A DNA stretch of 42,955 nt. Origin: Actinomycetes bacterium (GTDB lineage Bacteria; Actinomycetota; Acidimicrobiia; Spongiisociales; UBA5794). The notes under the pieces were generated by a model. It saw only the letters and a program-made list of their open reading frames with translations. It did not search any database and had not been told where the DNA came from. Made by a program: the position numbers and the translations under genes. Location of the stretch: positions 1 through 42,955 of the forward strand of contig JAMBLH010000023.1 of NCBI GenBank assembly GCA_023336875.1. Direction: 5' to 3'. Of the stretch, positions 5,101 through 41,837 are shown piece after piece. Position 1 is the first letter of the stretch. Each line of letters opens with the position of its first letter.

Positions 5101-5105
5101 GCGAA

Positions 5106-7040: not shown

Positions 7041-7046
7041 GTGGAG

Positions 7047-7116: not shown

Positions 7117-7118
7117 TT

Positions 7119-8408: not shown

Positions 8409-8412
8409 GGAC

Positions 8413-9177: not shown

Positions 9178-9224
9178 CAGGGTAACCGCGATTCGTGGGG
9201 GTCAGGTGCATGGGACAATTCAGG

Positions 9225-10238: not shown

Positions 10239-10298
10239 GGAGTTGAGCTCTGCGTCCGATATCGGTTGAGGACACCATGCGTATTTCGGGAGTAGAAC

Positions 10299-11390: not shown

Positions 11391-11440
11391 TACAAGGCAG
11401 CTGAGAGCCGAACAGCTGGCACAGGACGCGCTGTCCCGTC

Positions 11441-13446: not shown

Positions 13447-13464
13447 GTCTTTCCTGACCTCTTC

Positions 13465-13498
13465 TATGCACTTATTGTTGCATATGCGTATACTGAAT
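13465..13498. promoter_or_regulatory. Putative ArgR operator plus -10 element for a leaderless argC transcript
   Basis: AT-rich patch with ATGCA (13466-13470), TGCAT (13479-13483), ATGC (13484-13487) and TGAAT (13494-13498). TATGCA-N8-TGCATA is a perfect inverted repeat. TATACT (13489-13494) lies 6 nt before the argC ATG. Confidence 0.45.
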
Positions 13499-13500
13499 GG

Positions 13501-14529: not shown

Positions 14530-15686
14530 GTGTCACCGCTGCCATCGGATTCTCAGCTGCGGGTGTTGCTGCCGGGATCAAACCCGATGCTCTCGATGTC
14601 GCAGTGATCGTCGCCGACGCGCCAAGTCCGACGGCTGGAGTGTTCACATTGAATCAGGCAGCAGCCGCCCCGGTCGTCCTTGATAGGGAGAGCCTTGGAC
14701 GCAGCGCACTCAAACGTGGCATCGTGATCAACTCCGGTTGTGCAAACGCGGCAACGGGGGACCAGGGCATTGCAAATGGTGTGGCGATGGCAGGGACACT
14801 CGCAGACCAGATCGGGTGCGAACGGGGTGATGTGCTCGTGAGTTCAACTGGGACGATCGGACCCCAGCTACCGATGGATCTGGTTCTCCCAGGTATCAGA
14901 TCCGCAGCATCTCGGCGCTCACCAACTGAGGAGTCGGCAACGCTTGCTGCCAGAGCCATATTGACGACCGATTCCGTTGTGAAGCAGTCCGTTGTCCGGA
15001 GCAATGGCTGGGTTGTGGGAGGCATGTCGAAGGGATCTGGCATGGTTCGGCCGAACATGGCAACGATGCTGGCGTTCCTCACCACCGATGCTCTCGTTGA
15101 GCCCACGGTTCTCAATGACATTCTCAGGGCCGCAGTAGAAGTGTCATTCAACTCTTTGAACATCGATGGCTGCGAATCCACAAACGACTCCGTCATTGCC
15201 ATGGCTTCAGGAGCCTCACACATTGTTCCCGACCATGACGAGTTCGCAGCGGCAATGGAAGAGGTATGTCGTGACCTTGCACTCCAGATGGCAGCCGATG
15301 CTGAGGGCACATCACGAGTCGTGACAATCAACCTGACTGGGGGAGCCGACGACGCGGACTCCAGGGCACTGGGGCGCACCGTGGCTGATTCGGCGCTCGT
15401 GAGATCCTCCTTCTATGGGGGAGACGTGAATTGGGGGAGAATCCTTGGAGCTCTCGGCACCTCGGCCATCGATATCGATCCGGGAAGGATCACTGTCGAG
15501 TACGAGGGAGTAGTCGTCTTCGAGCGAGGCATGGGCGCGGGATTCGACGAGGCAGCTTTGCTTGAGACGATCGAGACAGGCGATTTCTCGATCACCATTG
15601 ACATGGGTAGCGGCGACGGCCGGGCGCGTGTCGTCACAACCGATCTCACGCCGGAGTACGTGGCGTTCAACGGAGAACGATCATGA
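14526..15686 (+). CDS. argJ: Bifunctional ornithine acetyltransferase / N-acetylglutamate synthase
   Basis: VSVTAAIGFSAAGV N-terminus typical of ArgJ, and autoprocessing site ATMLAFLTTDA. GTG 14526 overlaps the argC stop (GTGA); GTG 14517 is an alternative start. Confidence 0.9.
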   Translation: MSVTAAIGFSAAGVAAGIKPDALDVAVIVADAPSPTAGVFTLNQAAAAPVVLDRESLGRSALKRGIVINSGCANAATGDQGIANGVAMAGTLADQIGCERGDVLVSSTGTIGPQLPMDLVLPGIRSAASRRSPTEESATLAARAILTTDSVVKQSVVRSNGWVVGGMSKGSGMVRPNMATMLAFLTTDALVEPTVLNDILRAAVEVSFNSLNIDGCESTNDSVIAMASGASHIVPDHDEFAAAMEEVCRDLALQMAADAEGTSRVVTINLTGGADDADSRALGRTVADSALVRSSFYGGDVNWGRILGALGTSAIDIDPGRITVEYEGVVVFERGMGAGFDEAALLETIETGDFSITIDMGSGDGRARVVTTDLTPEYVAFNGERS

Positions 15687-16585
15687 CAGGGCATACGACA
15701 CCTCACGCAGCAAAACCCCGTATTGCGTCGACCATGGGCAAGGCGGGCATCTTCTCGGAGGCGCTGCCCTTCATCAGCCGTTTCAGGGGGTCCACCGTCG
15801 TCATCAAGTACGGCGGCTCGGCAATGGTCGACGATCTACTACGTGGCACATTCGCAGATGACGTCGCAATGCTCCACTACGTCGGGATCAAGCCTGTCAT
15901 CGTGCACGGCGGGGGCCCCCATATCTCGAAAGCCATGGGGCAACAGGGCATCGAACCACAATGGATCGAAGGTCTCAGAGTCACAGACGAACACACCATG
16001 AGAGTCGTCCAGGCCACTCTCGTAGGGGAGATCAACCCCGATATTGTCCGGCTCATCAACAACCACGGATCTGTTGCAGCGGGGATGTCAGGACTCGATG
16101 CCAATCTGTTCGTCGCCGAGCCCGAGGATCAACGGCTCGGTTTCGTGGGAAGAGTTACCAAAGTCAACACCGATCTCATCGAGGGTCTCCAGGATCAGGG
16201 ATATGTACCTGTGGTGGCACCCATTGCGCGCGGGGAGGACGGCGCCAGCTACAACGTCAACGCCGACGTAGCAGCGAGCGTTCTGGCAACTGCCCTTGGT
16301 GCCCGAAAGCTCGTGTACCTGACCGATGTCGAGGGCCTCTATCGAAATCTCGGCGACGATGACAGCCTCATCTCCAGGATCACAACTCCCGAGTTGGAGG
16401 AGCTCATCGAAGGCGGGTCCGTCTCTGCTGGAATGCTGCCGAAGCTCAGATCAGCCATCGATGCCGTGGATGGCGGCGTCGACCAGGTGCACATCCTCGA
16501 TGGCCGGATGCAGCACGCCCTGTTGTTGGAAATTTTTACGCCTGAAGGCATCGGAACGATGATCACGATGGAGACGAGACCGTGA
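15683..16585 (+). CDS. argB: Acetylglutamate kinase
   Basis: VVIKYGGSAM, VHGGGP and NVNAD motifs. ATGA overlap with argJ. Confidence 0.92.
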   Translation: MTGHTTPHAAKPRIASTMGKAGIFSEALPFISRFRGSTVVIKYGGSAMVDDLLRGTFADDVAMLHYVGIKPVIVHGGGPHISKAMGQQGIEPQWIEGLRVTDEHTMRVVQATLVGEINPDIVRLINNHGSVAAGMSGLDANLFVAEPEDQRLGFVGRVTKVNTDLIEGLQDQGYVPVVAPIARGEDGASYNVNADVAASVLATALGARKLVYLTDVEGLYRNLGDDDSLISRITTPELEELIEGGSVSAGMLPKLRSAIDAVDGGVDQVHILDGRMQHALLLEIFTPEGIGTMITMETRP

Positions 16586-17055
16586 GAGCCGACACCAACG
16601 CCAGACGACGTGAGGTCAGGAACCTTCTCGGCTCGGGAGACATCGCAAGTCAGGGCGATCTCCAGTCGTTGTTGGCGGACAAGGGATTCGATGTGACCCA
16701 GGCGACGATCTCTCGCGATCTCGACTCGGTGGGCGCAGAGCGCGTCAAGGACATCGGTGGCTTCAGATATCGAATATCACGGCATTCCGACACCGACAAC
16801 GAAGCCGTTGCAGCGTTGTTGGAGGCGGTAGACGAGTTCGTCGAGAGCATCGTCACCTCGGGCAGTCTCATCGTGCTGAAGGTCCCCCCAGGCGCCGCGC
16901 AGTTCGTTGCAAGCCGCATCGATGCCGCTGAGTTGAACGGTTCACTCGGAACGATTGCGGGAGACGACACCATCCTCATCGTCGCCGATGAGCAAGTGGG
17001 CGTCTCGGAACTTTCAAGAAGACTTACAGGAATGGAGCAAACCCATGGCAAGTGA
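16582..17055 (+). CDS. argR: Arginine repressor
   Basis: Winged-helix N-terminus with QATISRDL. C-terminal oligomerisation/arginine-binding part with [16 protein letters not shown] overlap with argB. Confidence 0.9.
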
Positions 17056-18262
17056 CATCAAGAAGGTCGTATTGGCGTACAGCGGTGGCCTCGACACCTC
17101 CATCATCCTCAAGTGGATCAAAGAGGAATACAACGCAGAGGTCGTTACGTACACAGCTGACGTTGGGCAGGGAGAAGAGGTGGAGGAGGCGCGGGTGAAA
17201 GCGCTCGAGACGGGCGCGACCGAGGCGATCTGTGAAGACCTCACGGAGGAGTTCGTGACCGATTACGTGTTCCCCGCTTTTCGAGCATCCTCGCTCTATG
17301 AGGGCTACTACCACATGGGCACTTCGCTTGCGCGACCGGTGATCTCAAAGGGTCTCGTACGTGCCGCGATCGACACCGGTGCCGATGCCATTGCACATGG
17401 TGCCACAGGCAAAGGAAACGACCAGGTGCGTTTCGAACTCTCGGCGTACGCTCTCAAGCCAGATATCAAGGTGATCGCACCATGGCGTGAGTGGGATCTT
17501 AAAGGCAGAGCCGACCTTGTGGCATACGCAGAGCGCCACGGCATTCCCGTCCCTGTTACGCCGGAGAAGCCGTACTCCACCGATGCCAATCTGCTTCACA
17601 TCTCGTACGAGGGAGGCGTCCTGGAGGACCCATGGACCTCTCCGCCTGAGAACATGTTCGCGATGACAGTGAGTCCCGAGGCCGCACCAGATGAAGCGGA
17701 ATTCGTGACGATCGGATACGAAGCAGGTGATCCCGTGTCAATCGACGGTGTGAGGATGTCTCCCGTTGAGATCCTCACGAGGACAAATGAGCTCGGAGGA
17801 AGGCATGGCATCGGGCGAGTGGACATTGTCGAGAACCGGTTCGTTGGAATGAAGAGCCGCGGCGTCTACGAGACACCCGGAGGCACTCTTCTCTATCACG
17901 CCCACCGAGCGGTTGAATCGTTGACGCTGGACCGTGAGGTCGCCCACCTGCGCGACGAGCTGTCCAACCGGTACGCCGAGATGGTGTACAACGGATTCTG
18001 GTTCGCCCCAGAGCGCGAGGCGCTCCAATCGTTCATGGACGACGTCCAGAAACCTGTAACAGGAGAGGCGAGGATGAAGCTGTACAAAGGGCAGGCGATC
18101 GTCGACGGGCGCCGTTCCGACACGCATGACCTATACGACGAGGCAACTGTGACCTTTGAGGCAGATGATGTATACAACCAATCAGACGCCGAGGGCTTTA
18201 TCCGCCTCCAATCCCTCCGACTCCGCACGTTCGCGGAGAAAAGGCTCGGCGAAGGTGAGTAA
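17045..18262 (+). CDS. argG: Argininosuccinate synthase
   Basis: [12 protein letters not shown]-binding motif and [17 protein letters not shown] 17045 overlaps the argR end by 11 nt. Confidence 0.93.
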
Positions 18263-18333
18263 ACGACATACGACGTACGACCTACGGCATAGGACAGGAT
18301 TCGGAGTCGTGGGTCGTACGTCGTACGTCGTTT
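18261..18333. repeat. Long inverted repeat (22-bp arms, 1 mismatch, 29-nt loop) in the argG-argH spacer
   Basis: aaacgacatacgacgtacgacc (18261-18282) pairs with ggtcgtacgtcgtacgtcgttt (18312-18333). The arms are built from acgacRt heptads. It starts inside the argG stop codon. Confidence 0.7.
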
Positions 18334-18355
18334 GTCGGGCGCACGGAGGGCGGCT

Positions 18356-19717
18356 ATGACTCTGTGGTCGGGTGGGCGTTTCGAGGAGGGGCCGTCTGAG
18401 GAGCTGTGGCGGTTCACGGTGGACACCTCCGATCGGCGAATGCTCGTCGACGACATCGACGGTTCCATTGCACACGCAACCATGCTTGGCGGCGTTGGTC
18501 TACTTACTCCCGATGAGGCGGCTGCAATGCTCGAGACTCTCGGAGCGATCAGGGATGAGGCAGTGGCGGGCAGGTTCGTGTTTATCGAAACGGACGAGGA
18601 TGTTCACTCGGCGGTTGAGCGGAGACTTGGGGAAGCGATCGGCGAGCTCGCGGGCAAGCTCCACACAGGCAGGTCAAGAAACGATCAGGTCGCGCTCGAC
18701 CTGAGGCTGTATCTCAAGCGGTCGGCACGCAGCCGTATCGACCAACTCAGCGCTTTCATCCGAGTACTGATCGATGTGACGGAATCGGTGGGTGATGCGG
18801 TTGTACCGAGCTACACGCATCTCCAGCAGGCCCAGGCGATCCCGCTTGCGCACCATCTGCTCGCCTATGCGTGGATGATCAAGAGGGACATTGAGCGATT
18901 CTCCGATGTGATGGCTCGGATCGACGTATCGCCCCTCGGTGCGGGCGCATCGGGAGGTTCGTCCCTCCCGCTCGATGTGGAGGCTTCTGCTGAGTTACTT
19001 GGCATGACGGCGATATTCGATAACTCAATGGACGCAGTCGGGTCTCGCGATGTCGCGGCGGAGTATGTCTGGTGCGCCACTCAGGCAATGCTGCACTTGT
19101 CGCGCCTGTCCGAGGAACTGCTGTTGTGGTCGACGAGCGAATTCGGTTGGGCCACCTTCTCCGACGCCTACACGACGGGATCATCTGCAATGCCACACAA
19201 GAAGAACGTCGACATTGCGGAGCTCGTCCGGGGTAGGTCGGCAGCAGTGATCGGAGACCTCACGTCGATCGCTGCCCTGCAGAAAGGCTTGCCCATGACC
19301 TACAACAGAGACCTGCAGGAGGACAAGCGGATCGTGTTTCACGCGGATGACACTCTTGCGGGTTCGCTCGAAGCTCTCGGAGGCATGTTATCAACCGCGG
19401 AGTTCCATACACCTCCGCCATCTGATTGGGTAACGGCTCTTGATCTTGCAGAAGCACTCGTTGGTAGAGGCGTCCCGTTCAGAGTCGCGCATCTCCTCGT
19501 TGGAGGACTGGTCACCGAATTGATAGCACGTGGAGAGTCATTCCATGATCTGACGGAGCAGCAGCTCACCGAATTCGATGGCCGATTCGAGGGGGCCGAC
19601 CTCGCGGTGTTCGACGTCGGTGCCTCGGTGGCCGCTCGCTCGACGCACCGAGGTGGATCCATGGAATCGGTCGAAGCACAAATCCGAGACCTCGAAGCAT
19701 TCCTGACTCTCGGCTGA
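18356..19717 (+). CDS. argH: Argininosuccinate lyase
   Basis: MTLWSGGRF start after GGAGGG. Fumarate-lyase signature GSSAMPHKKN. Confidence 0.93.
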   Translation: MTLWSGGRFEEGPSEELWRFTVDTSDRRMLVDDIDGSIAHATMLGGVGLLTPDEAAAMLETLGAIRDEAVAGRFVFIETDEDVHSAVERRLGEAIGELAGKLHTGRSRNDQVALDLRLYLKRSARSRIDQLSAFIRVLIDVTESVGDAVVPSYTHLQQAQAIPLAHHLLAYAWMIKRDIERFSDVMARIDVSPLGAGASGGSSLPLDVEASAELLGMTAIFDNSMDAVGSRDVAAEYVWCATQAMLHLSRLSEELLLWSTSEFGWATFSDAYTTGSSAMPHKKNVDIAELVRGRSAAVIGDLTSIAALQKGLPMTYNRDLQEDKRIVFHADDTLAGSLEALGGMLSTAEFHTPPPSDWVTALDLAEALVGRGVPFRVAHLLVGGLVTELIARGESFHDLTEQQLTEFDGRFEGADLAVFDVGASVAARSTHRGGSMESVEAQIRDLEAFLTLG

Positions 19718-30456: not shown

Positions 30457-32145
30457 CTAGCTCAGACCGACGACGTTTCCGTTCTCATCAATGTCGATCG
30501 TGTGGGCAGCGGGGTGCACTCCCAGACCTGGCATTCTGTTGATCGATCCTGTGAGTGGGAGGACGAAGCCCGCACCTGCGGCCAACTGGACCTCTCGAAT
30601 TGGAAGAGTCCAACCTGAGGGCGCGCCGAGCAGGGCAGGGTTGTGGCTGAACGAATACTGCGTCTTCGCCATGCAGATGGGCAGATCCCCGTAGCCGTGT
30701 GATTCGTAGCTGGCGAGTTGTCGCTTTGCCTTGATGTCGTATTCAACGCCATCCGCGCCGTACACCCGCGTGGCGATGAGCTCGATCTTGTCCGTCAGGC
30801 TCATGTCAGGCGTGTATAGCGGTACGAACTCCGAGCCGTCGTCGGCTGCAGCGCTGACGGCCTCTGCGAGGGCGACCATTCCTTCGGCTCCACCCGAATA
30901 CGGATCGGCGATGGCCCACGCTGCGCCCTCCTCCTCCGCGATCAGACCAATGGCAGCATGCTCTGAAGCGTGATCGGTGGGGAAGCTGTTCACCGCAACA
31001 ACAGGCGTAACGCCGTGTTGGCGAATATTGGCGATGTGGCGCCTCAGATTGTCAGCGCCAGCCATGACGTCTTCGGGATTCTCCGCAGTCATCTCATCTG
31101 GAAGGGGCTTTCCCGCCCTCACCTGGAACTTCCCCGAATTGAGCTTCAACGCACGAACCGTCGCGACGATGACCGCAACATCAGGAGCCATGCCGGATGC
31201 CTGACACTTCAGGTTGAAGAACTTCTCCGCCCCGACGTCCGATCCAAAGCCTGCCTCTGTGATGAGGTAGTCACCGCTGCGAACTCCTATCTGGTCCGCA
31301 ACGATCGAGGAGTTTCCGTGTGCGATGTTTGCGAACGGGCCTGTATGAACCAGGGCAGGTGTGCCCTCCAGCGTCTGCATCAGGTTGGGATTGAGGGAAT
31401 CCTTGAGCAACACCGCCATGGACCCTGCACCGCCGATCTGTTCGGCTGTGACGGGTTCCTTGTGGCGGTCGTAACCGACCACGATTCGGCCAAGGCGCTG
31501 CCTTAGATCCTGAAGATCTGTCGCAAGGCCCAGGATCGCCATGAGCTCTGACGCTGCGGTGATGTCGAACCCGCCCTCTCTCGGAATTCCATCAAGGGTT
31601 GTCCCGAGGCCGATCACGATGTGGCGCAGCGACCTGTCATTGACATCCATCACCCTTCGCCACGTGACCCGCTTCACGTTGATCGACAGCTGGTTGCCCT
31701 GATAGATGTGGTTGTCGATGAGAGCCGCAAGCAGGTTGTTGGCGACGGTGACTGCATGGAAGTCACCCGTGAGATGGAGGTTCATCTCCTCCATCGGTAC
31801 AACTTGGGAGTAGCCACCGCCAGCAGCGCCGCCCTTGATGCCGAAGGTGGGACCGAGCGAGGGCTGGCGGAGGGTGAGGACCGCTTGTTTGTCGAGAAGC
31901 TTGAATCCTTGCGCCAGTCCAACGGACACCGTGGTCTTGCCCTCGCCGAATGGCGTCGGGTTGACTGCGGTCACGAGTACATACTTCGCCCGCGGCGGTC
32001 CCATCTCGGTGAGGGCGCCAAGATCGACCTTCGCGATGCCTCTGCCCCTGGGTTCCACATACCTGTCGGGGATCCCCATGTCGTGAGCGACATCGGTGAT
32101 TGGTCTCAGATTCGTTTCTCTTGCAATTTCAAGATCAGTTTTCAT
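30457..32145 (-). CDS. fhs: Formate-tetrahydrofolate ligase
   Basis: 562 aa. MKTDLEIA...PTPFGEGKTT P-loop and typical FTHFS sequence throughout. Confidence 0.93.
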   Translation of the reverse strand: MKTDLEIARETNLRPITDVAHDMGIPDRYVEPRGRGIAKVDLGALTEMGPPRAKYVLVTAVNPTPFGEGKTTVSVGLAQGFKLLDKQAVLTLRQPSLGPTFGIKGGAAGGGYSQVVPMEEMNLHLTGDFHAVTVANNLLAALIDNHIYQGNQLSINVKRVTWRRVMDVNDRSLRHIVIGLGTTLDGIPREGGFDITAASELMAILGLATDLQDLRQRLGRIVVGYDRHKEPVTAEQIGGAGSMAVLLKDSLNPNLMQTLEGTPALVHTGPFANIAHGNSSIVADQIGVRSGDYLITEAGFGSDVGAEKFFNLKCQASGMAPDVAVIVATVRALKLNSGKFQVRAGKPLPDEMTAENPEDVMAGADNLRRHIANIRQHGVTPVVAVNSFPTDHASEHAAIGLIAEEEGAAWAIADPYSGGAEGMVALAEAVSAAADDGSEFVPLYTPDMSLTDKIELIATRVYGADGVEYDIKAKRQLASYESHGYGDLPICMAKTQYSFSHNPALLGAPSGWTLPIREVQLAAGAGFVLPLTGSINRMPGLGVHPAAHTIDIDENGNVVGLS

Positions 32146-32215
32146 GCCGACACGTTACCTATGCCCGTGTAGGAGTGCCGACCGAATGCCACGTATCTGT
32201 GAAAAGTCCGCGACA

Positions 32216-32791
32216 ATGGAGACCGTGATCACGCACACTGTTGGAGGGATTCTTGCCGGTGGAGATAGCAGCCGCATGGGCACATCCAAGTCGTTGCTCG
32301 TAGTCGACGGCATGTCATTCCTCGAGCGCATCCATAGAACCATGACGGCAGTGTTCACTGAGGTGATCGTGTGTGGTGGTTCCGAGATACCGTCCGATGG
32401 CGTGTTGATCCCAGACGAGCAACCAGGCCATGGACCGGTTGGCGGACTGCTCTCAGCGCTTCGGATTGCGAGGGGACGCCCTGTGTTCGTGACGACGGTC
32501 GATATGCCGGTCGTGACATCGGAGGCGATTCGGTCCCTTGCAGAACCAGAGGCGCAGGGGAGCACGGTCAGGATCGCGCAGGTCGCCGGCGAGGATCAGC
32601 CGCTTTTCGGGGTCTACGGACCCGACGTGGAACCGATCGCTCGCACGATCTTCGATGAGGGTCGGCGATCGGTGATGGCAGTGATCGATGAGGTTGATGA
32701 TGTCACAAGGATCACGATCGATTCTTCTACCCTGTTCAACGTCAACACAAGATCGGATTACAACGTGCTGATCGAAAGGTACGGACTGTGA
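32216..32791 (+). CDS. mobA: Molybdenum cofactor guanylyltransferase
   Basis: GGILAGGDSSRMG motif. ATG 32216 is preferred because the ORF-track start at 32096 would overlap fhs. Confidence 0.8.
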   Translation: METVITHTVGGILAGGDSSRMGTSKSLLVVDGMSFLERIHRTMTAVFTEVIVCGGSEIPSDGVLIPDEQPGHGPVGGLLSALRIARGRPVFVTTVDMPVVTSEAIRSLAEPEAQGSTVRIAQVAGEDQPLFGVYGPDVEPIARTIFDEGRRSVMAVIDEVDDVTRITIDSSTLFNVNTRSDYNVLIERYGL

Positions 32792-33099
32792 AGATCAGGC
32801 TTGCGGATGACGAGATACGCATCCGTCTCAACCATGACGATGTGGTTCGATTGATCGATGGGGGCACGGTCGACTGCGTGGTGATGCCCGGTGCCTATTC
32901 GATTCGGATGACGACCTCCGCCCACACACGATCCGAAGTCGGCTTCACCGCCACCGGCATCGACCTTACGATTCCCCCCGGTGTGCTCCCTGACAACCCC
33001 AACGAATTCGAACCACACACGTGGGGTGGTGACGCCGGGCATCCACGCGTAATGATCGAGTTGGATAAGCAACGTCGCCCGAGAACACGTAGCGGCTAG
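32788..33099 (+). CDS. Hypothetical protein (103 aa)
   Basis: The GTG start overlaps the mobA stop (GTGA). Its stop overlaps the fdhD stop convergently. No recognised motif. Confidence 0.5.
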   Translation: MKIRLADDEIRIRLNHDDVVRLIDGGTVDCVVMPGAYSIRMTTSAHTRSEVGFTATGIDLTIPPGVLPDNPNEFEPHTWGGDAGHPRVMIELDKQRRPRTRSG

Positions 33100-33875
33100 G
33101 AAATCCTCGTCCCACCGCAGTACACGTTGAATCCGTCCTCCGAGAGGAATCCAACGACCGTCATTCCGAGCTCGTCTCCGAGGTCCGCTGCGAGGGATGA
33201 TGCTCCGGATACGCCAGCGATGATTGGCATCCCTGCAACTGCGGCCTTCTGCACCATCTCGAAGCTGAGCCGTCCGGAAACAATGAGAACGAGATTGGAG
33301 AGTGGCCACCGGTCTCGTGAGAGGGAGCCGACCAGCTTGTCGACAGCGTTGTGGCGGCCCACATCCTCCGCAATACCCATGAACTCTCCTTCGGGGGTGA
33401 ATGCTGCGGCCGCGTGGATGCTTCCTGTGCGTCCGAAGACGGGCTGTGACCGCCGCATCACCGCCGGTAGAGATCTGAGCCTTGTGGCGCTGACGGTGGG
33501 ACCTTGACGAATGGTTCTTGCCGTGACTCGAACCGCGTCGATGGACGCCTTCCCACACACTCCACACGACGATGACGTGAACAGGTTGCGACGGAACTGC
33601 TCCGGATCCACCGTCACTCCATCTGCGAGCACTATCTCGTAGCGGTCGCCCTCGGTCGATCCCTCAGTGAGGCGAACTGCTGCGACCTCATCCGGAGTGA
33701 GCACGATTCCCTCCGTGAGGGAGAAGCCAAGTGCCAGATGCTCATCTTCGCCTGGTGTCCGCATCAGCACCGCAATAGGCACTCCTCCAAGCCGAAACTC
33801 AACCGGCGCCTCTTGGACGAGTTCGTCGGTGGTGGTTTCTGCTCCAGCGGCCGAGTAGCGAACGATCTCCCTCAA
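33096..33875 (-). CDS. fdhD: Formate dehydrogenase accessory sulfurtransferase FdhD
   Basis: SSSCGVCGKASID cysteine motif and GRHNAVDK. TTG start. Confidence 0.88.
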   Translation of the reverse strand: MREIVRYSAAGAETTTDELVQEAPVEFRLGGVPIAVLMRTPGEDEHLALGFSLTEGIVLTPDEVAAVRLTEGSTEGDRYEIVLADGVTVDPEQFRRNLFTSSSCGVCGKASIDAVRVTARTIRQGPTVSATRLRSLPAVMRRSQPVFGRTGSIHAAAAFTPEGEFMGIAEDVGRHNAVDKLVGSLSRDRWPLSNLVLIVSGRLSFEMVQKAAVAGMPIIAGVSGASSLAADLGDELGMTVVGFLSEDGFNVYCGGTRIS

Positions 33876-34077: not shown

Positions 34078-34932
34078 TCACTTCTCTTCCTGCAGGTACC
34101 CGTATCCAAAGCGGCCCTTGATGCAGAGGTGGCCGTTGGTGACGTCGTGGTCCATGGGCGACGTGACCTTGACCACTCGGTTGTCCTGGACGTGTAGCTC
34201 CAGGTTGCACCCAACCCCACAGAACGAGCAGATCGTCGTTGTGATGGATTGGCGGCCCTCATCCCACGTGTCCGCCTCGCGCATGTCGTACTCCGACTTG
34301 AACATCAGTGCACCGGTAGGGCAGACTCCGATGCAGTTTCCGCAGTACACACATGCTGAGTCTGGGAGTGTGACGTCATATTCGGTCGAGATGGTCGAGG
34401 AGAGCCCACGGCCAGCCACGTCGATGGCGAAGGTGTTCTGGGCATCAGGCCCGCATGCCGCGACGCAGCGGTAGCACATAACGCATTTGTCGTAATCCCT
34501 GATGTAGAGGTCGTCCTGGATCTTGACTGCCCGGTGGGGCTCGTATCTTCCGAACCGGTCGGGATCGACGTCGTACTTTGACATCCAGTTCTTTGTCTCA
34601 GCATCGGCAAGGGAGAGGTCAACCGTCGATGCGTAGAACTCGTATAGGGTTCGCCGAGCATCTGTAATGCGTTCCGAATCGGTCGAGATCTCCATGCCGC
34701 TCTCGACGATCCGCGAGCATGCCGGCACCAGTGTGCGGGATCCCGCTACTTCGACCACACAAAGACGACAGGAGTTGAATGGGCTGAGCGTCTCGAGGAA
34801 GCACATGGTCGGCACGTCGAGATCTTGAGCGCGGCACACATCGAGAATCGTGGCGTCGGCATGTGCTGTGACTGCGGTTCTGTTGAGGGTGATCTCGACC
34901 ATTCTTGGTTCAGGAAGTGTGGACTCGATCAC
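34078..34932 (-). CDS. NuoG-like Fe-S subunit: N-terminal portion of the formate dehydrogenase alpha subunit (2Fe-2S, 4Fe-4S clusters and Molybdop_Fe4S4 domain)
   Basis: 2Fe-2S motif CFLETLSPFNSCRLCVVEV, two ferredoxin-type CxxCxxCxxxCP motifs, and a terminal CSFCGVGC-x27-C (FS0) domain ending KGRFGYGYLQEEK. The GTG start overlaps the NuoF stop (GTGA). Confidence 0.85.
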   Translation of the reverse strand: MIESTLPEPRMVEITLNRTAVTAHADATILDVCRAQDLDVPTMCFLETLSPFNSCRLCVVEVAGSRTLVPACSRIVESGMEISTDSERITDARRTLYEFYASTVDLSLADAETKNWMSKYDVDPDRFGRYEPHRAVKIQDDLYIRDYDKCVMCYRCVAACGPDAQNTFAIDVAGRGLSSTISTEYDVTLPDSACVYCGNCIGVCPTGALMFKSEYDMREADTWDEGRQSITTTICSFCGVGCNLELHVQDNRVVKVTSPMDHDVTNGHLCIKGRFGYGYLQEEK

Positions 34933-36536
34933 GAGTCACCTCCGATCAGCCCAATGCGAATGGCAGATTCGATAGCGTTTGCTGCTGTGTGGCCAAGACC
35001 ACAGATCGAGGCATCTCGCATCACCCATCCGACGGCGTCGAGATTGTCATAGTCGGTCTGGGTGTCGGTTCCTGAGCGGATCCGGCCGACGATCTCGAGT
35101 TGTTGAGATGTCCCAACGCGACACGGCACGCATAGTCCACATGATTCGTCGGCGAAGAACTCGGCGATCCGATGTGTGATCGCGCCCATGTCGACCTCAG
35201 TGTTGAAGGCCATGATTGCCCCGGATCCAAGAGAGACTCCTGCATCGCGCCCATCCTCGAATGTCAGAGGCACGTCGAGTTGGGCCTCGGTGAGGAATGA
35301 ACCTGCCGCACCTCCTGTGAGGACCGCCCGAAGTTCGCCAACTGCACCTCCTGCAAGATTGATGAGCTCTCTCGTCGTGACACCGAACTCGACTTGATAC
35401 ACGCCGGGTTTCGCCACTTTCCCACTCACGCAGAAGAGTTTGAGTCCTGTGGACTCCTTCGTACCGAGTCGTGCAAAGGAGTCGCCCCCGTCGCGGATGA
35501 TCCCAGGGATGGCGGCAAAGGTCTCGACGTTGTTGATCAGCGTCGGGGAGCCGAACAGGCCGGATTGTGTTGGGAAGGGCGGCTTCTGGCGAGGCTGTCC
35601 CCTGAATCCTTCGATCGAGTTGAAAAGAGCCGTTTCTTCTCCGCATATGTATGCGCCAGCTCCTCTGCGGATCTCGATGTCAACACCGAAATCCGAACCT
35701 GTGGCCTCCAGCGCAGCCTCGAGCACATTCTCAGCTTCGCGGTACTCCCCTCGGATGTAGATGTATGCCTTGGTCGCGCCAACGGCCAACGCTGCGATGG
35801 CAATTCCCTCGAGAAGCACGAACGGGTTCGTCTCGATAAGCCAGCGGTCCTTGAATGTGCCTGGCTCGGATTCATCTGCATTGCACACAACGTACTTCGC
35901 GTCGCCGGACGCGTCAGCAACACCGTCCCACTTGATGCCAGCGGGGAAGGCAGCACCTCCACGTCCACGAATTCCTGACACCGTGACCTCGTTGCGAACG
36001 GCGGTGGCCCCCATTGTGCGTGCCTTGACAAGAGCATCGAAGGATGGCGTGTACAACCGTGGCGACTCTGGCGTCTCGTGCGTCCCGTCGAGTACCGATG
36101 CGACTACTTCGGCTGTGACGGGCGCGATGGTGAGCGCTGTCTCGCCTGCCCTCTGGATGAAGGCGGCCGATCCCTTCTCGCAGTGCCCGAGGCACGGCGA
36201 TCGAACCCACATACCCTCACCGTTCGGTGCGCCCTCCGGGCCAATCTCGGCCTCGAGGGTTGAGATGAGCTGGTCTCCTCCAGCAGCCGTGCACACGATG
36301 TCATCACACACCCGCGCAACACGTGCGGGAGTCGGTTCGGTTGCGATCAGGTCGTAAAACGTCGCAACTCCATATGCCTCTGCCGGGGCGACAGGAATCC
36401 GTTCAGAAATGTAGTTCAGTGCCCCATGGCTCACGAACCCGATCGAATCCTGGACTGCATGGAGCGAGGGAAGCAGAAGATGCCTGTTCTCGGCCGCGTT
36501 GTGAAAGCCACCATAGGCAACATGGTCGTCTGCCAC
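34929..36536 (-). CDS. NuoE-NuoF fusion (NAD+-reducing diaphorase subunit of formate dehydrogenase)
   Basis: The N-terminal NuoE-like 2Fe-2S motifs (CDDIVC...CLGHC) are followed by the NuoF FMN/NADH part (GRGGAAFP, YICGEETAL) and the 4Fe-4S motif ESCGLCVPCR. GTG 36536 is the first canonical start, but the frame stays coding-like up to 36656. Confidence 0.85.
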   Translation of the reverse strand: MADDHVAYGGFHNAAENRHLLLPSLHAVQDSIGFVSHGALNYISERIPVAPAEAYGVATFYDLIATEPTPARVARVCDDIVCTAAGGDQLISTLEAEIGPEGAPNGEGMWVRSPCLGHCEKGSAAFIQRAGETALTIAPVTAEVVASVLDGTHETPESPRLYTPSFDALVKARTMGATAVRNEVTVSGIRGRGGAAFPAGIKWDGVADASGDAKYVVCNADESEPGTFKDRWLIETNPFVLLEGIAIAALAVGATKAYIYIRGEYREAENVLEAALEATGSDFGVDIEIRRGAGAYICGEETALFNSIEGFRGQPRQKPPFPTQSGLFGSPTLINNVETFAAIPGIIRDGGDSFARLGTKESTGLKLFCVSGKVAKPGVYQVEFGVTTRELINLAGGAVGELRAVLTGGAAGSFLTEAQLDVPLTFEDGRDAGVSLGSGAIMAFNTEVDMGAITHRIAEFFADESCGLCVPCRVGTSQQLEIVGRIRSGTDTQTDYDNLDAVGWVMRDASICGLGHTAANAIESAIRIGLIGGDS

Positions 36537-36733
36537 TGTTCGTTCCGTTGCGCCTGACCATGTCGAATCCGGCTCGCCCAGTAGCGCATCAACGGCGGCG
36601 CGCTCGGCATCCGTCGGTGCATCAGTTGTAGTTTGATAGTCGATGGTGGCCTCGCTTCAGTGTCCCCATGATGGTCGTTCGTGCGGACCAAGGAGGAGAG
36701 CGGAATACGACATCATAATTGTATGCAGTCCGT

Positions 36734-38611
36734 CTAGAGACTCTCGATACGCACAGCCGTTGCCTTGAACTCGGCGGTCCCTGACTTGGGGTCCCAGTCA
36801 TCGATCGTCAGTTGATTCACGTCGACCTCATCTGGTGCGTGAAACGCCATGAACACCAGGCCCCTGCGCAGGCCGTCCACGATGCGCACGGGTGCTTCGA
36901 CAGATCCTCTGCGTGATGAGACTCGGACAACTTCGCGCTCTTCGACGCCAAGATCCTCGGCTTGTTCCTTCGTCATGTCGATCACTACATCGGCTCGAAT
37001 AGGTGATCGGTAGCCGCCCGACTGGACTCCCGTGTTGTAGGAGTCGAGTCGTCGCCCTGTTGTCAGCCTGATAGGGAAGTCATCGTCGAGGGGATCGATG
37101 GGTGGCATCCATTCGACTATCGAGAACGGAGCAGGTTCTCTTGGCAGGGTCTCCTCCCAGAGCCATCCATGGAGGAAAGGTGTTCCCGGGTGATCGTCGT
37201 CCGGACAGGGCCACTGGAGCCCGCCGAGGGCGTCAAGGCGTTCGTAGGACATACCCGCGTGCATGGGCGAGAGACTGCGGAGTTCGTCCCAGATGGCCTC
37301 TGCGTCGCGTGGCTCCCAATCGTGGCCAAGTGCATTGGCGAGCATCGTGATGATCTCATTGTCGTCCTTCGCCTCGCCTGGAGGATCGAGCGCCTTGCGA
37401 ACTCGCTGGACGCGGCGCTCTGATGAGGTGACGGTTCCATCGGTCTCCGCCCAGCCTGCTGCGGCGGGAAAGACCACGTCAGCCATTTGTGCGGTCTTGG
37501 TGAGGAAGATGTCCTGAACAACAAGGTGGTCGAGTCCATCGAGAAGGCGGATCGCCCTGCTGACATCTGCCTCGGACTGCGCGGGATTCTCGCCGATTAC
37601 ATACATCGCCGTGAGTTCACCGAGATCCATTGCATCGATCATCTCAGCGATGTGCCATCCGGGTTCCGCTGGAACGGGTGAGTCCCAAGCTGCTTCGAAC
37701 TTGGCTCTCGCATTACGGTCCGTAACGTCCTGGAATCCAGGGAACTTGTTCGGGAGGGCACCCATGTCGCCGCCCCCCTGGACATTGTTCTGTCCACGGA
37801 TCGGGACGAGCCCCGATCCCCACCGGCCGACGTGGCCTGTGAGAAGAGCGAGGTTGATGAGAGAGAGCACGTTGTCTGTCCCGGTGGCGTGCTCGGTGAT
37901 CCCGAGCGTCCAGCACAGTTGCGCAGTTGGCGCCTTTGCATAGTCGTGAGCAAGAGCGCGGATCGCCTCAGCGGGCACTCCAGTGATTTCCTCACCACGC
38001 TCGAGGGTCCAGGTCTCGACCGACTCTGCGTACGCATCGAATCCGGACGTCGAGTGCTGAATGAACTCGGCATTGACCAGGCCTGCGTGGATGATCTCAC
38101 GGGCGACCGTGTTCGAGAGAGCTATGTCTGATCCGACATCGATGCCCAGCCACGTATCGGCCCATTCAGCAGACTCTGAGCGTCGGGGGTCGACGGTATA
38201 CATTTTTGCGCCGTTGCGGATGCCCTTGGTGATGCGGTGAAAAAAGATAGGGTGGGCGTTGCGCGCGTTCGACCCCCACAGGACGATTAGGTCCGTGGTC
38301 TCCATCTCCTTGTAGGAGGAGGTGCCTCCTCCTGCCCCGAGCACTGCCGCCAGACCGGCGACGGAGGGAGCGTGTCAGGTACGGTTGCAGCTGTCTATGT
38401 TGTTCGTGCCGAGAACCGTCCTGGCGAACTTCTCTGCGAGAAAGTTCATCTCATTGGTTGCCTTGGAACACGAGAGCAGTCCCGTTGCCGCACCGGAATT
38501 GCGTTCGAATCCTGCCGCTGCCGTTGCCAGAGCCGTATCCCAGTCTGTCGGCTGCAGCTCGCCGTCGATCCGAACCATCGGCGAGGTCAACCGCTCATAT
38601 CGTTTACCCAT
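36734..38611 (-). CDS. Formate dehydrogenase catalytic subunit (Mo/W-bisPGD domain only), selenocysteine-containing (TGA at 38375-38377 read as Sec)
   Basis: ORFs 38375..38611 and 36734..38344 share one frame, separated only by a TGA. Joined, they read NNIDSCNRT-U-HAPSVAGLAAVLGAGGGTSS, the FDH active-site motif. ATG 38611 is preceded by GGGAGGTGA. The C-terminal molydopterin-binding domain ends AEFKATAVRIESL. Confidence 0.82.
38328..38377 (-). promoter_or_regulatory. UGA codon plus putative bacterial SECIS hairpin
   Basis: mRNA reads UGA CAC GCU CCC UCC GUC GCC GGU CUG GCG GCA GUG CUC GGG GCA GGA GG. Upper stem GUCGCC/GGCGGC with loop GGUCU. Lower stem CCUCC/GGAGG. The loop starts 22 nt from the U of UGA. 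Confidence 0.6.
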
Positions 38612-38665
38612 CTTTCACCTCCCGTCGCCAGAGCCCACGGTACCACCCCCGCACGCAAGAACCGG

Positions 38666-39298
38666 CTAGACGATGCGGCGGTCACTTGCCCAGCGGGCGA
38701 GCTCGTGGCGGTTGGAGAGTTGGAGCTTGCGCAGGACGGCAGAGACGTGGGTTTCTACGGTTTTGGTCGAGATGTCCAGGCGTCGGGCGACCTGTTTGTA
38801 CTGGTAGCCGCGGGCGATCTGGCGTAATACCTCTTTCTCGCGCGGTGTGAGTTGGTCAAGTTCTGGGTCCTCCTCGATCGGCACCGCCTTTGAGAACGCC
38901 TCGAGGACGAAGCCGGCCAGCGAAGGCGAGAAGACCGCATCGCCGGAATCCACCCTGCGGATCGCGTCGGCGAGTTCGGAGGGAGAGATTGATTTCGTCA
39001 CATATCCCCGACATCCTGCACGGATCATCGCGATCACGTCCTCAGGCGCGTCCGATACAGAGAGCGCGAGGAATCGGATGCCGGGATTCGTCTCCGAGAT
39101 ACTCGTGACCACAGCAACTCCTCCCCCCCCGGGCATGTGTACATCAACCAGTACGACATCCGGCTTGTGTGCGCGAATCTCGTCGATCGCACCATCGACA
39201 TCCCCCGAGACGCCGAGCACATCGAACTCGTCTGAGAGTTCTGCCCGTACACCCGTGAGGAAGAGAGAGTGGTCGTCCACCAGATACACCGACGTCAT
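38666..39298 (-). CDS. LuxR/NarL-family response regulator
   Basis: Receiver domain (DDHSLF...DVVLVDVHMPGGGG) plus LuxR HTH (LTPREKEVLRQIARGYQYKQVARRLDISTKTVETHV). ATGA overlap with the kinase gene. Confidence 0.9.
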   Translation of the reverse strand: MTSVYLVDDHSLFLTGVRAELSDEFDVLGVSGDVDGAIDEIRAHKPDVVLVDVHMPGGGGVAVVTSISETNPGIRFLALSVSDAPEDVIAMIRAGCRGYVTKSISPSELADAIRRVDSGDAVFSPSLAGFVLEAFSKAVPIEEDPELDQLTPREKEVLRQIARGYQYKQVARRLDISTKTVETHVSAVLRKLQLSNRHELARWASDRRIV

Positions 39299-40476
39299 AA
39301 GGTACCTCCAGGCATTGTCAGGTGGACCTCCGTGCCAACTCCGCTTGACGAGTCGATTGTCACGGTTCCGCCATTGCGCGACATCCGTCCCCGGATGGAC
39401 TCAGTGATTCCTTTGCGGTCCGCTTCGACGTTCTCGGGATCGAAGCCGCAACCCTGATCTGTGATGAACACTTCGACGTCATCGCCGGTCGCCTCGGCGA
39501 ACACTGAGACCTTGGCCGCTCCCGAATGCTGTGCGGCGTTCATCATTGTCTCCGTTGCTGCTCCGACGAGCGCCTTCTGAGCTGCGGGGGGGAGTTCGTC
39601 ATCGCCCACCACAACGACGGTGACAGGGACGTCGTGGGCCTCCTCAACTCTTGTGGCGGCCGCTCCTAGCGCGCCGCGGAGAGTCTGTTCGTCGGCAGCT
39701 TCAGGGTTATAGAGCCACGCGCGGAGGTCTCTCTCCTGAGCTCGTGCAAGAGTGACCATCTTCTTCGGATCCTCTGTGCGCTGGATGAGCGCGAGGGACT
39801 GGAGCACGGAGTCATGGAGGTGAGCCGCCATCTCGGCACGCTCCTCGGAGCGGATGCGAGCTCGGCGTTCCGTACCGAGATCCTCAATCAGGGACCAAAA
39901 CCACGGACCACCCACGATGACGAACCCAACAAGCGTGAGGATTGTCGCAATGACGAGAGCACCCACCGATTGAAGCCCATCGAGCGACGTCAGCACGAAG
40001 GCTAGACCAGCGATCATCATGGCAAGGCCACCGAGGACAAGCCACCACGGACGCCGTGACGAGCCAACAACGCCTTCGAGAGACTGCTCGTAGTTGAAGC
40101 CGGACGTGTCGATTGCGATGGCGAGACCGAAGAGGACGAGCACGATCGGCCACGTGGCAGGACCGAACCAGAGCCCGATTCCCTGGAAGAGGAGCATTCC
40201 TGCAAGGAACATCGCGCCGATGCCGATCTTCTGTCGCGTTGTGGCTGAATGCGATTCAGGGGGTCCCTTGGCCTCAGGAACGATGAGCGAAGCGAGCACG
40301 TACGCGATGAGGCCAACCCCGCCAGCAAGCATCGCGGAGAGAAATGCTGCCCGAACGTATATCGGATGGATGCCGAGTCTCTCGCCGATTCCTCCAGCAA
40401 CGCCGGTGAGCATGCGCTTGTCTACCGATCGAAGGAACGGCCAATCGATTGTCTTGTGTCCAGAAGTCATTGCCAC
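39295..40476 (-). CDS. Sensor histidine kinase with N-terminal PspC domain (HisKA_3/HATPase)
   Basis: PspC motif RMLTGVAGGIGERLGIHPIYVRAAF, multiple TM helices, H-box AAHLHDSVLQSL, and ATP-binding part with NAAQHS...DQGCGF. Start is GTG 40476 or ATG 40470. Confidence 0.85.
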   Translation of the reverse strand: MAMTSGHKTIDWPFLRSVDKRMLTGVAGGIGERLGIHPIYVRAAFLSAMLAGGVGLIAYVLASLIVPEAKGPPESHSATTRQKIGIGAMFLAGMLLFQGIGLWFGPATWPIVLVLFGLAIAIDTSGFNYEQSLEGVVGSSRRPWWLVLGGLAMMIAGLAFVLTSLDGLQSVGALVIATILTLVGFVIVGGPWFWSLIEDLGTERRARIRSEERAEMAAHLHDSVLQSLALIQRTEDPKKMVTLARAQERDLRAWLYNPEAADEQTLRGALGAAATRVEEAHDVPVTVVVVGDDELPPAAQKALVGAATETMMNAAQHSGAAKVSVFAEATGDDVEVFITDQGCGFDPENVEADRKGITESIRGRMSRNGGTVTIDSSSGVGTEVHLTMPGGTL

Positions 40477-40525
40477 AGTGCTCCCAATGGTGTCACAGCC
40501 TGCGCACTGTCACAACTGGGGACGA

Positions 40526-40551
40526 CCCTGAGAGAACCCTGAGACCTCAGG
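40526..40551. promoter_or_regulatory. Direct repeats and palindrome in the divergent kinase/PspC intergenic region
   Basis: ccctgaga occurs twice (40526-40533 and 40537-40544). cctgag-ac-ctcagg is a palindrome (40538-40551). tgtcaca also occurs twice upstream, at 40491-40497 and 40508-40514 (outside this feature's span). The function is speculative. Confidence 0.3.
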
Positions 40552-40607
40552 AATGGAGGGGGCTGTTCCCTATTGCGGACCCAGTCGATTCACGACACGA
40601 TTACGAC

Positions 40608-41837
40608 ATGACTGACTACAACTACAGCCCAGACTCATCGACCACGTTGCGACGCTCAGACGATCAGAGGATCTTCGCAGGAGTATGTGGAGGACTCGGC
40701 GAACACTTCGGAGTCAACGCATGGTGGTTCCGTTGGGCGTTCATCATTCTGGCATTCTTCGGATTTGCCGGTATCGCCATCTACATTGCTTCCTGGCTCC
40801 TCATTCCGGATGAGGACAGTACGGAGTCGATTGCCGGAGGGTGGTTCGACGGTCTCGACATGAGTGATACGGGCACACTCTTCGGTGTGGTCCTCATCGG
40901 CGTTGCGGCGTTAATCATTGCGACAAGCGTCTTCCACATCTCGGGTGCAATCGTCATTGCGGTCGCACTTGGCATCATCGGATTCCTTCTCTACCGGGGG
41001 GACATCCGCCCGCCCGCCAAGACCCAGCCAACAGTCGATGAAATGATCGAAGTGAAAGAGGTCGAGGAATCGGCCGACGGCACGCCAGCGGGTACGACCG
41101 CAGCGGTAGTCACGACATCAGTTGCTACGAAACCTCAACGGACGCACAGGCCGCCGAAGGAGAAGAAGCCGCGTCCGCCCAAGTCAATGCTCGGTCGGCT
41201 CACAATGTCTGTCATGCTCATCGTGCTGTCGTCCATGGCGCTTATCGAGCTCGCTGATATCACCCGCATCGAGCCGTACGAGTATGCGGCTGCGGCCATG
41301 GGCGTGGTTGCGGTTGGGTTACTCGTGGGCGCATGGGTCGGTCGGGCGTACTGGCTGATCTTCATCGGCGTTCTGATTGCCCCTGTGCTGTTCTTCTCAT
41401 CACTTCTCCCGAGCATCGCGGATTGGTCAGCCGGTGATCCTCGCTACATGCCCACATCCGCGGACGAGGTCGCTGAGAGCTATGACCTCGGGGCCGGCCA
41501 GATGACCATTGATCTGACGCAACTCTCGGCCGATGAGCTGTCGAAGGTCGGTGAGATCGATGCATCAGTGAGCCTGGGGCAGCTGATCGTGCGTCTCCCC
41601 TCCAACGTCGGCGCAACCGTGAACGCGGAAGTTGGTGTTGGCGAGGTGACCGGCGGCGAGATCTTTGAGTCCGTGTTGGTGGACGTCTACCAGTACTCCG
41701 GTGTCAACGTGGAGCAGGTATTCACGGTCGGACCGCCACCGAATGATCTTCTCCTGAACCTCGAGGTGGGCGCTGGTGAGATAAGTATCCAGTACATTGG
41801 CGAGCTTGAGCTCGGCGTGAGTGAAAGCAAGGGATGA
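40608..41837 (+). CDS. PspC domain membrane protein with LiaF-like C-terminal region
   Basis: From ATG 40608: RIFAGVCGGLGEHFGVNAWWFRWAFIILAF PspC motif, several TM helices, a proline/lysine linker and a C-terminal beta-rich domain. Confidence 0.75.
   Translation: MTDYNYSPDSSTTLRRSDDQRIFAGVCGGLGEHFGVNAWWFRWAFIILAFFGFAGIAIYIASWLLIPDEDSTESIAGGWFDGLDMSDTGTLFGVVLIGVAALIIATSVFHISGAIVIAVALGIIGFLLYRGDIRPPAKTQPTVDEMIEVKEVEESADGTPAGTTAAVVTTSVATKPQRTHRPPKEKKPRPPKSMLGRLTMSVMLIVLSSMALIELADITRIEPYEYAAAAMGVVAVGLLVGAWVGRAYWLIFIGVLIAPVLFFSSLLPSIADWSAGDPRYMPTSADEVAESYDLGAGQMTIDLTQLSADELSKVGEIDASVSLGQLIVRLPSNVGATVNAEVGVGEVTGGEIFESVLVDVYQYSGVNVEQVFTVGPPPNDLLLNLEVGAGEISIQYIGELELGVSESKG

Follow-up and report, generated by a model that had tools for sequence, protein, structure and literature searches.

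A UGA-containing formate dehydrogenase gene of an Acidimicrobiia bacterium: a predicted selenoprotein with a split and permuted alpha subunit

Here, we analyzed a formate dehydrogenase (FDH) locus in a 42,955-nucleotide (nt) stretch of DNA from a bacterium of the class Acidimicrobiia (contig JAMBLH010000023.1 of assembly GCA_023336875.1; hereafter, the window, taken at its full length). The gene at the center of this analysis occupies positions 38611..36734 of the minus strand and encodes the catalytic subunit of an FDH of the type that binds molybdenum or tungsten in a bis-pyranopterin guanine dinucleotide cofactor (Mo/W-bisPGD), without the N-terminal Fe4S4 (FS0) domain. As read from the sequence, it begins with an ATG codon (38611..38609) that follows a Shine-Dalgarno-like GGGAGGTGA, the two together forming an element at 38609..38623 of the minus strand, with GGGAGGTGAAAG preceding the ATG at 38611. 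Translated in one frame, the gene comprises 625 codons, including the predicted selenocysteine (Sec) codon 79, which is the only stop in the frame: a TGA read at 38377..38375. The two open reading frames (ORFs) listed separately at 38375..38611 and 36734..38344 indeed share this frame, with the TGA as the sole stop between them, as the initial annotation had stated. In the translation, the TGA stands in the context ...LGTNNIDSCNRT*HAPSVAGLAAVLGAGGGTSSYKEM..., and the surrounding nucleotides of the minus strand read ...AAC CGT ACC TGA CAC GCT CCC TCC GTC GCC GGT CTG GCG GCA..., so that the codon is immediately followed by that for His80.

The read-through protein is, by all comparisons that we performed, an FDH. 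It contains the Pfam domains Molybdopterin (residues 7-426, E 1.6e-63) and Molydop_binding (residues 515-618), and its best NCBIfam match is TIGR01591 (Fdh-alpha), to which it aligns at profile positions 51-672 with 638 bits. This score lies below the TIGR01591 cutoff of 666.25 bits; the FS0 domain is not on the same polypeptide. The closest structures in the PDB are all FDHs, namely, FdhF of the hydrogen-dependent CO2 reductase (HDCR; 7qv7), F420-dependent FDH, Escherichia coli FdhF (1aa6, E 1.9e-131) and FdsA (6tg9). The residue encoded by codon 79, together with His80 and with Arg272 in the motif PIRGQNNVQG, aligns with the counterparts in FdhF of 7qv7, and the protein thus shows the hallmarks of the TIGR01591 type: the two domains, the Sec/Cys-His pair and the conserved Arg of PxRGQNNVQG.

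The evolutionary conservation of the TGA was assessed in the 80 closest loci (65-87% identity) retrieved in a scan of species-representative genomes, which, together with the window, make up a set of 81 sequences. The TGA is found at the codon-79 column in all 80 relatives, which come mostly from metagenome-assembled genomes (MAGs) of Acidimicrobiia, the others being labelled Gaiellales, Thermoleophilaceae, Nitriliruptorales, Vicinamibacteria/Acidobacteriota and Spirochaetia. In these orthologues, the coding sequence to either side of the UGA is conserved as well: identity to the window averages 64% over the N-terminal 78 amino acids (aa) and 78% over the next 100 aa, and at least 70 open codons lie upstream of the TGA in 79 of the 80 loci. 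Decay of the downstream frame in close relatives, which had been named beforehand as an outcome that would speak against the selenocysteine prediction, was not seen in the 80 loci, where the frame is intact on either side.

A protein search further yielded full-length relatives of 633-655 aa with 62-65% identity from Streptomyces, Thermopolyspora, Kutzneria and Nonomuraea, which carry a Cys codon (TGT or TGC) in place of the TGA. In 7 full-length relatives, Cys occupies exactly the TGA column (NNVDSCNRT-C-HAPSVAGL, compared with CNRT-U-HAPSVAGL in the window), and the same column holds the Sec codon of E. coli fdhF, so that the earlier assignment of the TGA to the Sec/Cys active-site motif of FDH is borne out. 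The Cys-form proteins likewise begin without an Fe4S4 domain. The suspicion that automatic annotation would truncate the gene proved correct as well. All database relatives with 72-97% identity are called at approximately 490-570 aa (range 489-570, most of them 536-540 aa); these calls cover 74-86% of the query and begin just after the TGA.

The RNA downstream of the UGA was examined in an ungapped alignment of nt 1-60 of all 81 sequences, with the U of UGA numbered 1. As a Sec insertion sequence (SECIS), we looked for a covariation-supported stem-loop that begins about 11-13 nt past the UGA and has G-U in its apical loop, and such an element is found here. The apical hairpin (38346..38362, minus strand) consists of a stem formed by nt 16-21 and 27-32 and a GGUCU loop at nt 22-26 (38356..38352), and 98.9% of the cells in this helix are paired across the alignment. 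The pair C18-G30 is replaced by G-C in 5 distinct sequences, both changes being synonymous and at third codon positions, and G19-C29 is replaced by A-U in 7 sequences, where Ala changes to Thr and Ala to Val together; because the latter exchange alters two amino acids, the structure appears to have been kept at a cost to the protein. In addition, U17 pairs with either G31 or A31, and C or U at nt 20 pairs with G28. None of the 81 sequences departs from the loop GGUCU or from C21, U24, C25 and G27 at the synonymous sites, such that Gly is always encoded by GGU and Leu by CUG in the Sec forms, whereas all four bases occur at third positions only a few codons away from the loop. Four distinct Cys-form genes served as a control: they specify the same S-V-A-G-L peptide (VAGL) but use GGC or GGG as the Gly codon and CTC, CTG or TTG as the Leu codon, and the stem cannot form in them. 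The 17-nt apical hairpin alone has a predicted free energy of -8.9 kcal/mol (z = -3.15), which none of 200 shuffled sequences matched.

The strings of the hairpin proposed in the initial annotation (CCUCC-GUCGCC-GGUCU-GGCGGC...GGAGG) are all present in the window, and the upper stem is conserved, but the proposed lower stem (nt 11-15 with nt 46-50) is paired in only 64% of the cells; it is tied to a UCC serine codon that the window happens to use. A helix of nt 7-11 (38371..38367) with nt 40-44 (38338..38334) fits better as the lower stem: it is part of the minimum free energy (MFE) structure of nt 1-44, 95.1% of its cells are paired, and the third codon positions 9 and 42 covary (UA 44, AU 5, GC 3, CG 2; 18 cells unpaired). 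The extended SECIS, with this helix around the apical hairpin, spans 38334..38371 of the minus strand.

The resemblance to E. coli fdhF is close. The GGUCU loop starts at nt 22, and both its position and its sequence are identical to those in E. coli fdhF, for which the initial annotation had pointed to the same spacing and a similar loop sequence. We verified this by matching the E. coli 47-mer (TGA CAC GGC CCA TCG GTT GCA GGT CTG...) to genomes: it is found in 5419 of 5426 E. coli genomes with at least 99% identity (100% in the matches listed), the match lies inside fdhF in 5413 of 5420 matching records, and one listed record annotates the matched gene as selenocysteine-containing. Both genes thus have UGACAC in common (nt 1-6), as well as GGUCUG (nt 22-27), and both proteins share the motif U-H-(G/A)-P-S-V-A-G-L and the same pair of Pfam domains. 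Of the two stems, that of E. coli is the weaker (-4.2 kcal/mol), that of the window consisting of 6 continuous pairs. E. coli FdhF also differs in having its own N-terminal FS0 domain and hydrogenase 3 as a partner, in contrast to the window protein, for which FS0 is on another polypeptide and the partners resemble NuoE, NuoF and NuoG.

The conserved TGA at the Sec/Cys column and the covarying hairpin support the prediction of a selenocysteine enzyme made in the initial annotation and, judging from the sequence and its covariation, we estimate a probability of roughly 90% that UGA codon 79 is a selenocysteine codon accompanied by a SECIS and that the gene encodes a selenoprotein FdhA. TGA is the commonest ordinary stop codon in the window, ending 17 of the 35 Pfam-supported genes, so that the genetic code is standard and the recoding must be local to codon 79. 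Genes of the Sec machinery are found beside the operon of one relative: in a Gaiellales locus with the same TGA operon (L053), selA and selB lie three genes from fdhD, the selA product matching Pfam SelA with E 5.8e-131 and the selB product containing the SelB winged-helix domain. In the underlying Gaiellales MAG, the segment divergent to the Sec-FDH operon (L086 8001-14177, corresponding to L053 14865-21041) comprises selA, selB, a 491-aa ORF with no Pfam match, a MobA-like gene, a MerR/TOBE regulator gene and fdhD; neither ARAGORN nor Rfam detected a tRNA-Sec within the L086 locus. When the L053 SelA was used as a database query, the best 120 matches were exclusively Gaiellales-like sequences, with no tie to the lineage of the window. 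Within the class Acidimicrobiia, Ilumatobacter coccineus, I. nonamiensis and Candidatus Microthrix parvicella are recorded as having SelD, SelA and SelB and Acidimicrobium ferrooxidans as lacking them (Peng et al. 2016, Table S1; PMC5029168), so that the Sec trait is documented in the class yet patchy within it, in agreement with the patchiness that had been anticipated for Actinobacteria. A further supplementary table of the same study gives counts of 15 and 10, which we take to be predicted selenoproteins, for the two Ilumatobacter species (PMC5029168).

Several observations weigh against this reading. Taken as a whole, the 60-mer has an MFE that does not surpass that of shuffled sequences (z = 0.03), so that thermodynamics alone would not have revealed the element. 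The compensatory changes at 18/30 and at 19/29 are each confined to a group of similar sequences and probably represent about two evolutionary events, not twelve. In E. coli fdhF, U17 of the SECIS is bulged, whereas in the window it is paired (U-G or U-A). No Rfam family was detected at gathering thresholds in the window or in L086, and in a permissive scan none of the SECIS families (SECIS_1 to SECIS_5) reached its threshold, the best being SECIS_3 with 11.1 bits compared with the required 63 (E 8.7); the curated Rfam SECIS models do not cover the element of the window. Finally, ARAGORN, Rfam and Pfam searches detected no selA, selB, selD or tRNA-Sec within the 43-kb window. ARAGORN reported no tRNA at all for the window, its scan of 84 related loci gave no tRNA-Sec, and motif and tblastn screens of the flanks of all loci recovered SelA, SelB or SelD only at L053, the other matches being to EF-Tu or other GTPases.

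How, then, could the pattern be explained without selenocysteine? Given that the TGA is kept in 80 of 80 relatives with coding conserved on both sides, neither a pseudogene, nor an error, nor a pair of genes can account for it. A pseudogene, with the TGA as a nonsense mutation or as an error of sequencing or assembly, would agree with the behavior of gene callers, which take the TGA as a stop in every close database relative, but the relatives were assembled independently and belong to several classes, the frame is intact and conserved on both sides, and so is the whole operon; we consider this possibility to be practically negligible. It is conceivable, too, that the UGA is a real stop and that a peptide of 78 aa assembles into the enzyme with a 536-aa protein that is initiated separately, at an in-frame GTG (38344) 10 codons past the TGA, the more so as the family already tolerates one split, with FS0 on another polypeptide. 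Such an arrangement, however, would delete the catalytic Sec/Cys, His80 and the next 9 residues of the invariant HAPSVAGL motif, although the residues between the TGA and the GTG are strictly conserved in the protein; moreover, no start codon is conserved among the relatives, in which the called starts vary, and the Cys forms are continuous. Thus, two separate proteins seem highly improbable.

The hairpin, in turn, might be a by-product of the conserved SVAGLA peptide in GC-rich DNA, with no function in the RNA: most bases of the stem fall at the first or second position of codons for conserved residues, and the folding energy of the 60-nt segment is not unusual for its composition. This notion fares poorly, and we regard it as very unlikely, in the face of the Cys-form control, in which the identical SVAGL is encoded by other synonymous codons with no stem, of the invariance of the synonymous nt 21, 24, 25 and 27 next to third positions that carry all four bases, and of the concerted change at the third positions 18 and 30. 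The remaining alternative concerns the inserted residue itself. Some soil bacteria are reported to possess tRNASec-like tRNACys species, and SECIS-aided recoding could insert Cys or another residue, either through such a Cys-charged tRNASec-like tRNA or through mis-acylation when selenium is scarce. The sequence data establish recoding, not the chemical identity of the residue, and Cys functions at this position in the homologues. Yet a plain TGY codon would suffice for Cys, as in the Cys clade, which leaves a TGA with a SECIS in 80 of 80 relatives hard to explain; furthermore, one relative carries beside the operon a canonical selA, the gene for the maker of Sec-tRNASec, and cultured Acidimicrobiia possess SelD, SelA and SelB (PMC5029168). 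We therefore consider insertion of a residue other than selenocysteine to be improbable, and the predicted residue 79 is, in our interpretation, selenocysteine.

The catalytic subunit gene is the first in an FDH operon that continues, in the minus strand, with a gene for a flavoprotein subunit (34929..36644), a fusion of a NuoE-like 2Fe-2S part and a NuoF-like part with FMN, NAD and 4Fe-4S sites (Pfam 2Fe-2S_thioredx, Complex1_51K, SLBB and NADH_4Fe-4S). It is followed by a gene for a separate 284-aa Fe-S subunit (34078..34932, minus strand; Pfam Fer2_4, Fer4_7 and Molybdop_Fe4S4), which overlaps the preceding gene at its stop by 4 nt; its product combines a 2Fe-2S site, two 4Fe-4S sites and a terminal Molybdop_Fe4S4 (FS0) domain at residues 230-280, and ends in ...HLCIKGRFGYGYLQE. 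Next come the gene for FdhD, the sulfurtransferase that matures the FDH cofactor (33096..33875, minus strand; Pfam FdhD-NarQ E 3.4e-64, with NCBIfam fdhD_narQ above its cutoff), a divergent gene for a MobA-like molybdenum cofactor guanylyltransferase (32096..32791, plus strand; Pfam NTP_transf_3 E 9.1e-28, with NCBIfam MobA families below their cutoffs) and the formate--tetrahydrofolate ligase gene fhs (30457..32145, minus strand; Pfam FTHFS E 5e-243). The linkage of the NuoE-like and NuoF-like (FMN, NAD-binding) subunits to the Mo gene is conserved in the relatives. In many related loci, fhs is linked to the FDH operon on either side, which suggests a role in the flux of one-carbon (C1) units between formate, CO2 and folate-bound forms, and the FDH operon together with fhs suggests a conserved formate/C1 module.

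Comparison with fused homologues reveals how the alpha subunit is divided. Against FdsA of Rhodobacter capsulatus (6tg9), the 284-aa protein corresponds to residues 23-304, the N-terminal third of that chain, and the Mo protein to residues 307-932; against TIGR01591, the Fe-S protein matches positions 1-50 (51.8 bits) and the Mo protein positions 51-672. An FdsA-like alpha subunit is thus split cleanly after FS0. The halves are, moreover, permuted: the Mo domain comes first, the flavoprotein gene lies between, and the Fe-S/FS0 module comes last. Wherever a locus extends far enough to reveal the order, it is, with hardly an exception, Mo domain, NuoEF, Fe-S subunit, and this arrangement is shared by the Sec and Cys clades. 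Among the Actinomycetota with Cys-type orthologues (Thermopolyspora flexuosa, Kutzneria, Nonomuraea and Streptomyces), the cultured Thermopolyspora, Kutzneria and Nonomuraea show the same split order, and in a Streptomyces locus the Fe-S gene is downstream, with a differently called ORF between. The Cys-type loci agree with the window in the operon order (Mo domain, NuoEF, Fe-S subunit, FdhD) as well as in the missing Fe4S4 domain, and differ from it in having TGT or TGC for TGA, no SECIS hairpin and an ATG or GTG start of the flavoprotein gene. We also considered whether an Fe4S4 N-terminus might lie frameshifted upstream of the Mo-domain gene and rejected this candidate. The upstream neighbor is a complete gene for a LuxR-type response regulator, so that a frameshift has not cost the gene an Fe4S4 domain, and the Cys-form relatives start at the same place. 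We found no published description of a split, permuted FDH of this architecture in full-text searches, whose coverage did not extend to subscription journals.

The arrangement can be compared to those of several characterized FDHs. FdsABG of R. capsulatus and Cupriavidus necator (PDB 6tg9/6tga) shares with the window NuoE-like, NuoF-like and NuoG-like Fe-S modules, FS0, Mo-bisPGD and an FdhD-type maturase. Unlike in the window, FdsA is a single 958-aa chain with Cys, which in the window is cut between approximately residues 304 and 307 into two genes; furthermore, in the window, NuoE and NuoF are fused, the predicted ligand is Sec, and no FdsD was found. The fusion of the NuoG-like Fe-S module to the Mo domain, a trait of FdsABG and Fdh1AB, is not found in the window. 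Fdh1B of Methylorubrum extorquens is a fused NuoE/NuoF. The tungsten FDH1 of this bacterium (Fdh1A/Fdh1B; PDB 7vw6, 7e5z) is likewise soluble and likewise combines a NuoG-like Fe-S/FS0 module and a Mo/W-bisPGD domain with a flavoprotein, and Fdh1A aligns with both the Mo protein and the Fe-S protein of the window; it is, in contrast, one chain with Cys, compared with three subunits and a predicted Sec in the window. Finally, a selenoprotein FDH of mycobacteria is also actinobacterial and Sec-containing; its UGA, too, is followed by a SECIS, and annotation routinely splits the gene (PMC13449736). The mycobacterial enzyme is, however, a 1064-aa protein of the membrane-associated FdoG/FdnG type, with selC-selA-selB near the gene (PMC13449736), in contrast to the soluble, split FdhF/FdsA type of the window.

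The N-terminal peptide of the flavoprotein, I-D-Y-Q-T-T-T-D-A-P-T-D-A-E-R-A-A-V-D, is conserved and begins at an ATC (36642-36644), with GAGG 6 nt upstream; this column holds ATC in the window and in 20 of the nearest loci from Acidimicrobiia, ATA in a further one, and either ATG or GTG, with a single TTG, in more remote loci. The flavoprotein gene thus probably starts, as judged from these codons, at ATC 36644, given that the GTG at 36536 in the ORF list would cut off 36 conserved codons. A second TGA (36659..36657), in frame between an ATG at 36716 and the flavoprotein N-terminus, was considered as another Sec codon and rejected, because the sequence that precedes the conserved I/M-D-Y/L start is not conserved in the relatives and the TGA lies upstream of the likely start. 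Contig L003 shows a peculiarity in this region, namely, an over-long match to the FDH gene (3835-6488) and two copies of the flavoprotein N-terminal peptide (6343/9293), which may reflect a local duplication or an assembly artefact.

From these comparisons, a mechanism can be proposed. Positions 38611..36734 would be translated into one 625-residue selenoprotein, the catalytic subunit of a cytoplasmic three-subunit FDH that is probably NAD+-linked. The mRNA would fold as a SECIS, with the 6-bp apical hairpin (nt 16-32) above the 5-bp helix 7-11/40-44, and, as in E. coli fdhF, a complex of SelB, GTP and Sec-tRNASec would bind G23/U24 of the loop and bring Sec to the ribosome for the decoding of UGA codon 79. 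Sec79 would then ligate the Mo or W of the bis-PGD cofactor beside His80, and Arg272 would be a further active-site residue. Formate would donate its electrons to the 4Fe-4S cluster of FS0, provided in trans by the 284-aa subunit, from which they would travel through the other clusters of that subunit to the NuoE/NuoF flavoprotein, and on to NAD+, a path suggested by the domain content and by the FdsABG and Fdh1AB structures. The dependence on SelB, the metal, the electron acceptor and the catalytic direction are all presumed by analogy to E. coli FdhF, FdsABG and Fdh1AB.

Several features of the genomic neighborhood deserve mention. Immediately upstream of the FDH gene, at 38666-41837, lie genes for the LuxR-type response regulator and a histidine kinase whose N-terminus carries a PspC domain, as well as, divergently oriented, a gene for a 462-aa PspC-domain protein; the kinase-regulator pair keeps its position beside the FDH gene in the closest relatives (L001, L003, L005, L007 and L011). 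The opposite end of the window (1-19717) contains origin-proximal housekeeping genes, namely, rsmG, parA, parB, trxB and a gene for an ECF-type sigma factor, and an arginine biosynthesis cluster (argC, argJ, argB, argR, argG and argH) at 13501-19717. Near-identical operons with the TGA and the SECIS are found in MAGs labelled Kiloniellales, Marinacidobacterales/Vicinamibacteria and Spirochaetia (L017, L021, L026-L028, L046-L049 and others), which implies either that the Sec-FDH operon has been transferred horizontally or that the contigs were mis-binned.

The FDH alpha subunit is the most widespread bacterial selenoprotein, identified in 822 organisms (Peng et al. 2016; PMC5029168), so that the biology described here is expected and the value of the finding is practical. 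Indeed, a UGA-encoded Sec with a SECIS in an FDH is an ordinary, known arrangement that is routinely mis-annotated as a truncated gene, and actinobacterial examples are already known. The alignment of the 81 SECIS sequences could serve as the seed of a covariance model for this type of SECIS, which Rfam misses at present. What stands out more is the split, permuted alpha subunit, which amounts to a natural experiment on the need for a covalent link between FS0 and the Mo/W domain. We tentatively suggest, as a reading that is possible but somewhat less than even in likelihood, that the window exemplifies a large, apparently undescribed clade of three-subunit, Sec-dependent soluble FDHs, with FS0, the neighbor of the metal site, in trans on a separate NuoG-like subunit encoded after the flavoprotein gene and with the catalytic subunit truncated by annotation in every member seen, a clade that would range over Acidimicrobiia, Thermoleophilia/Gaiellales, Nitriliruptorales and the MAGs labelled Vicinamibacteria and Spirochaetia. 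Given that the called proteins of the relatives lack the active site, metabolic reconstructions for Acidimicrobiia from sea and soil, and for their kin, either overlook the FDH or treat it as broken. If the tentative clade is real, both selenium use and the interconversion of formate and CO2 would be systematically under-counted in these abundant uncultured lineages.

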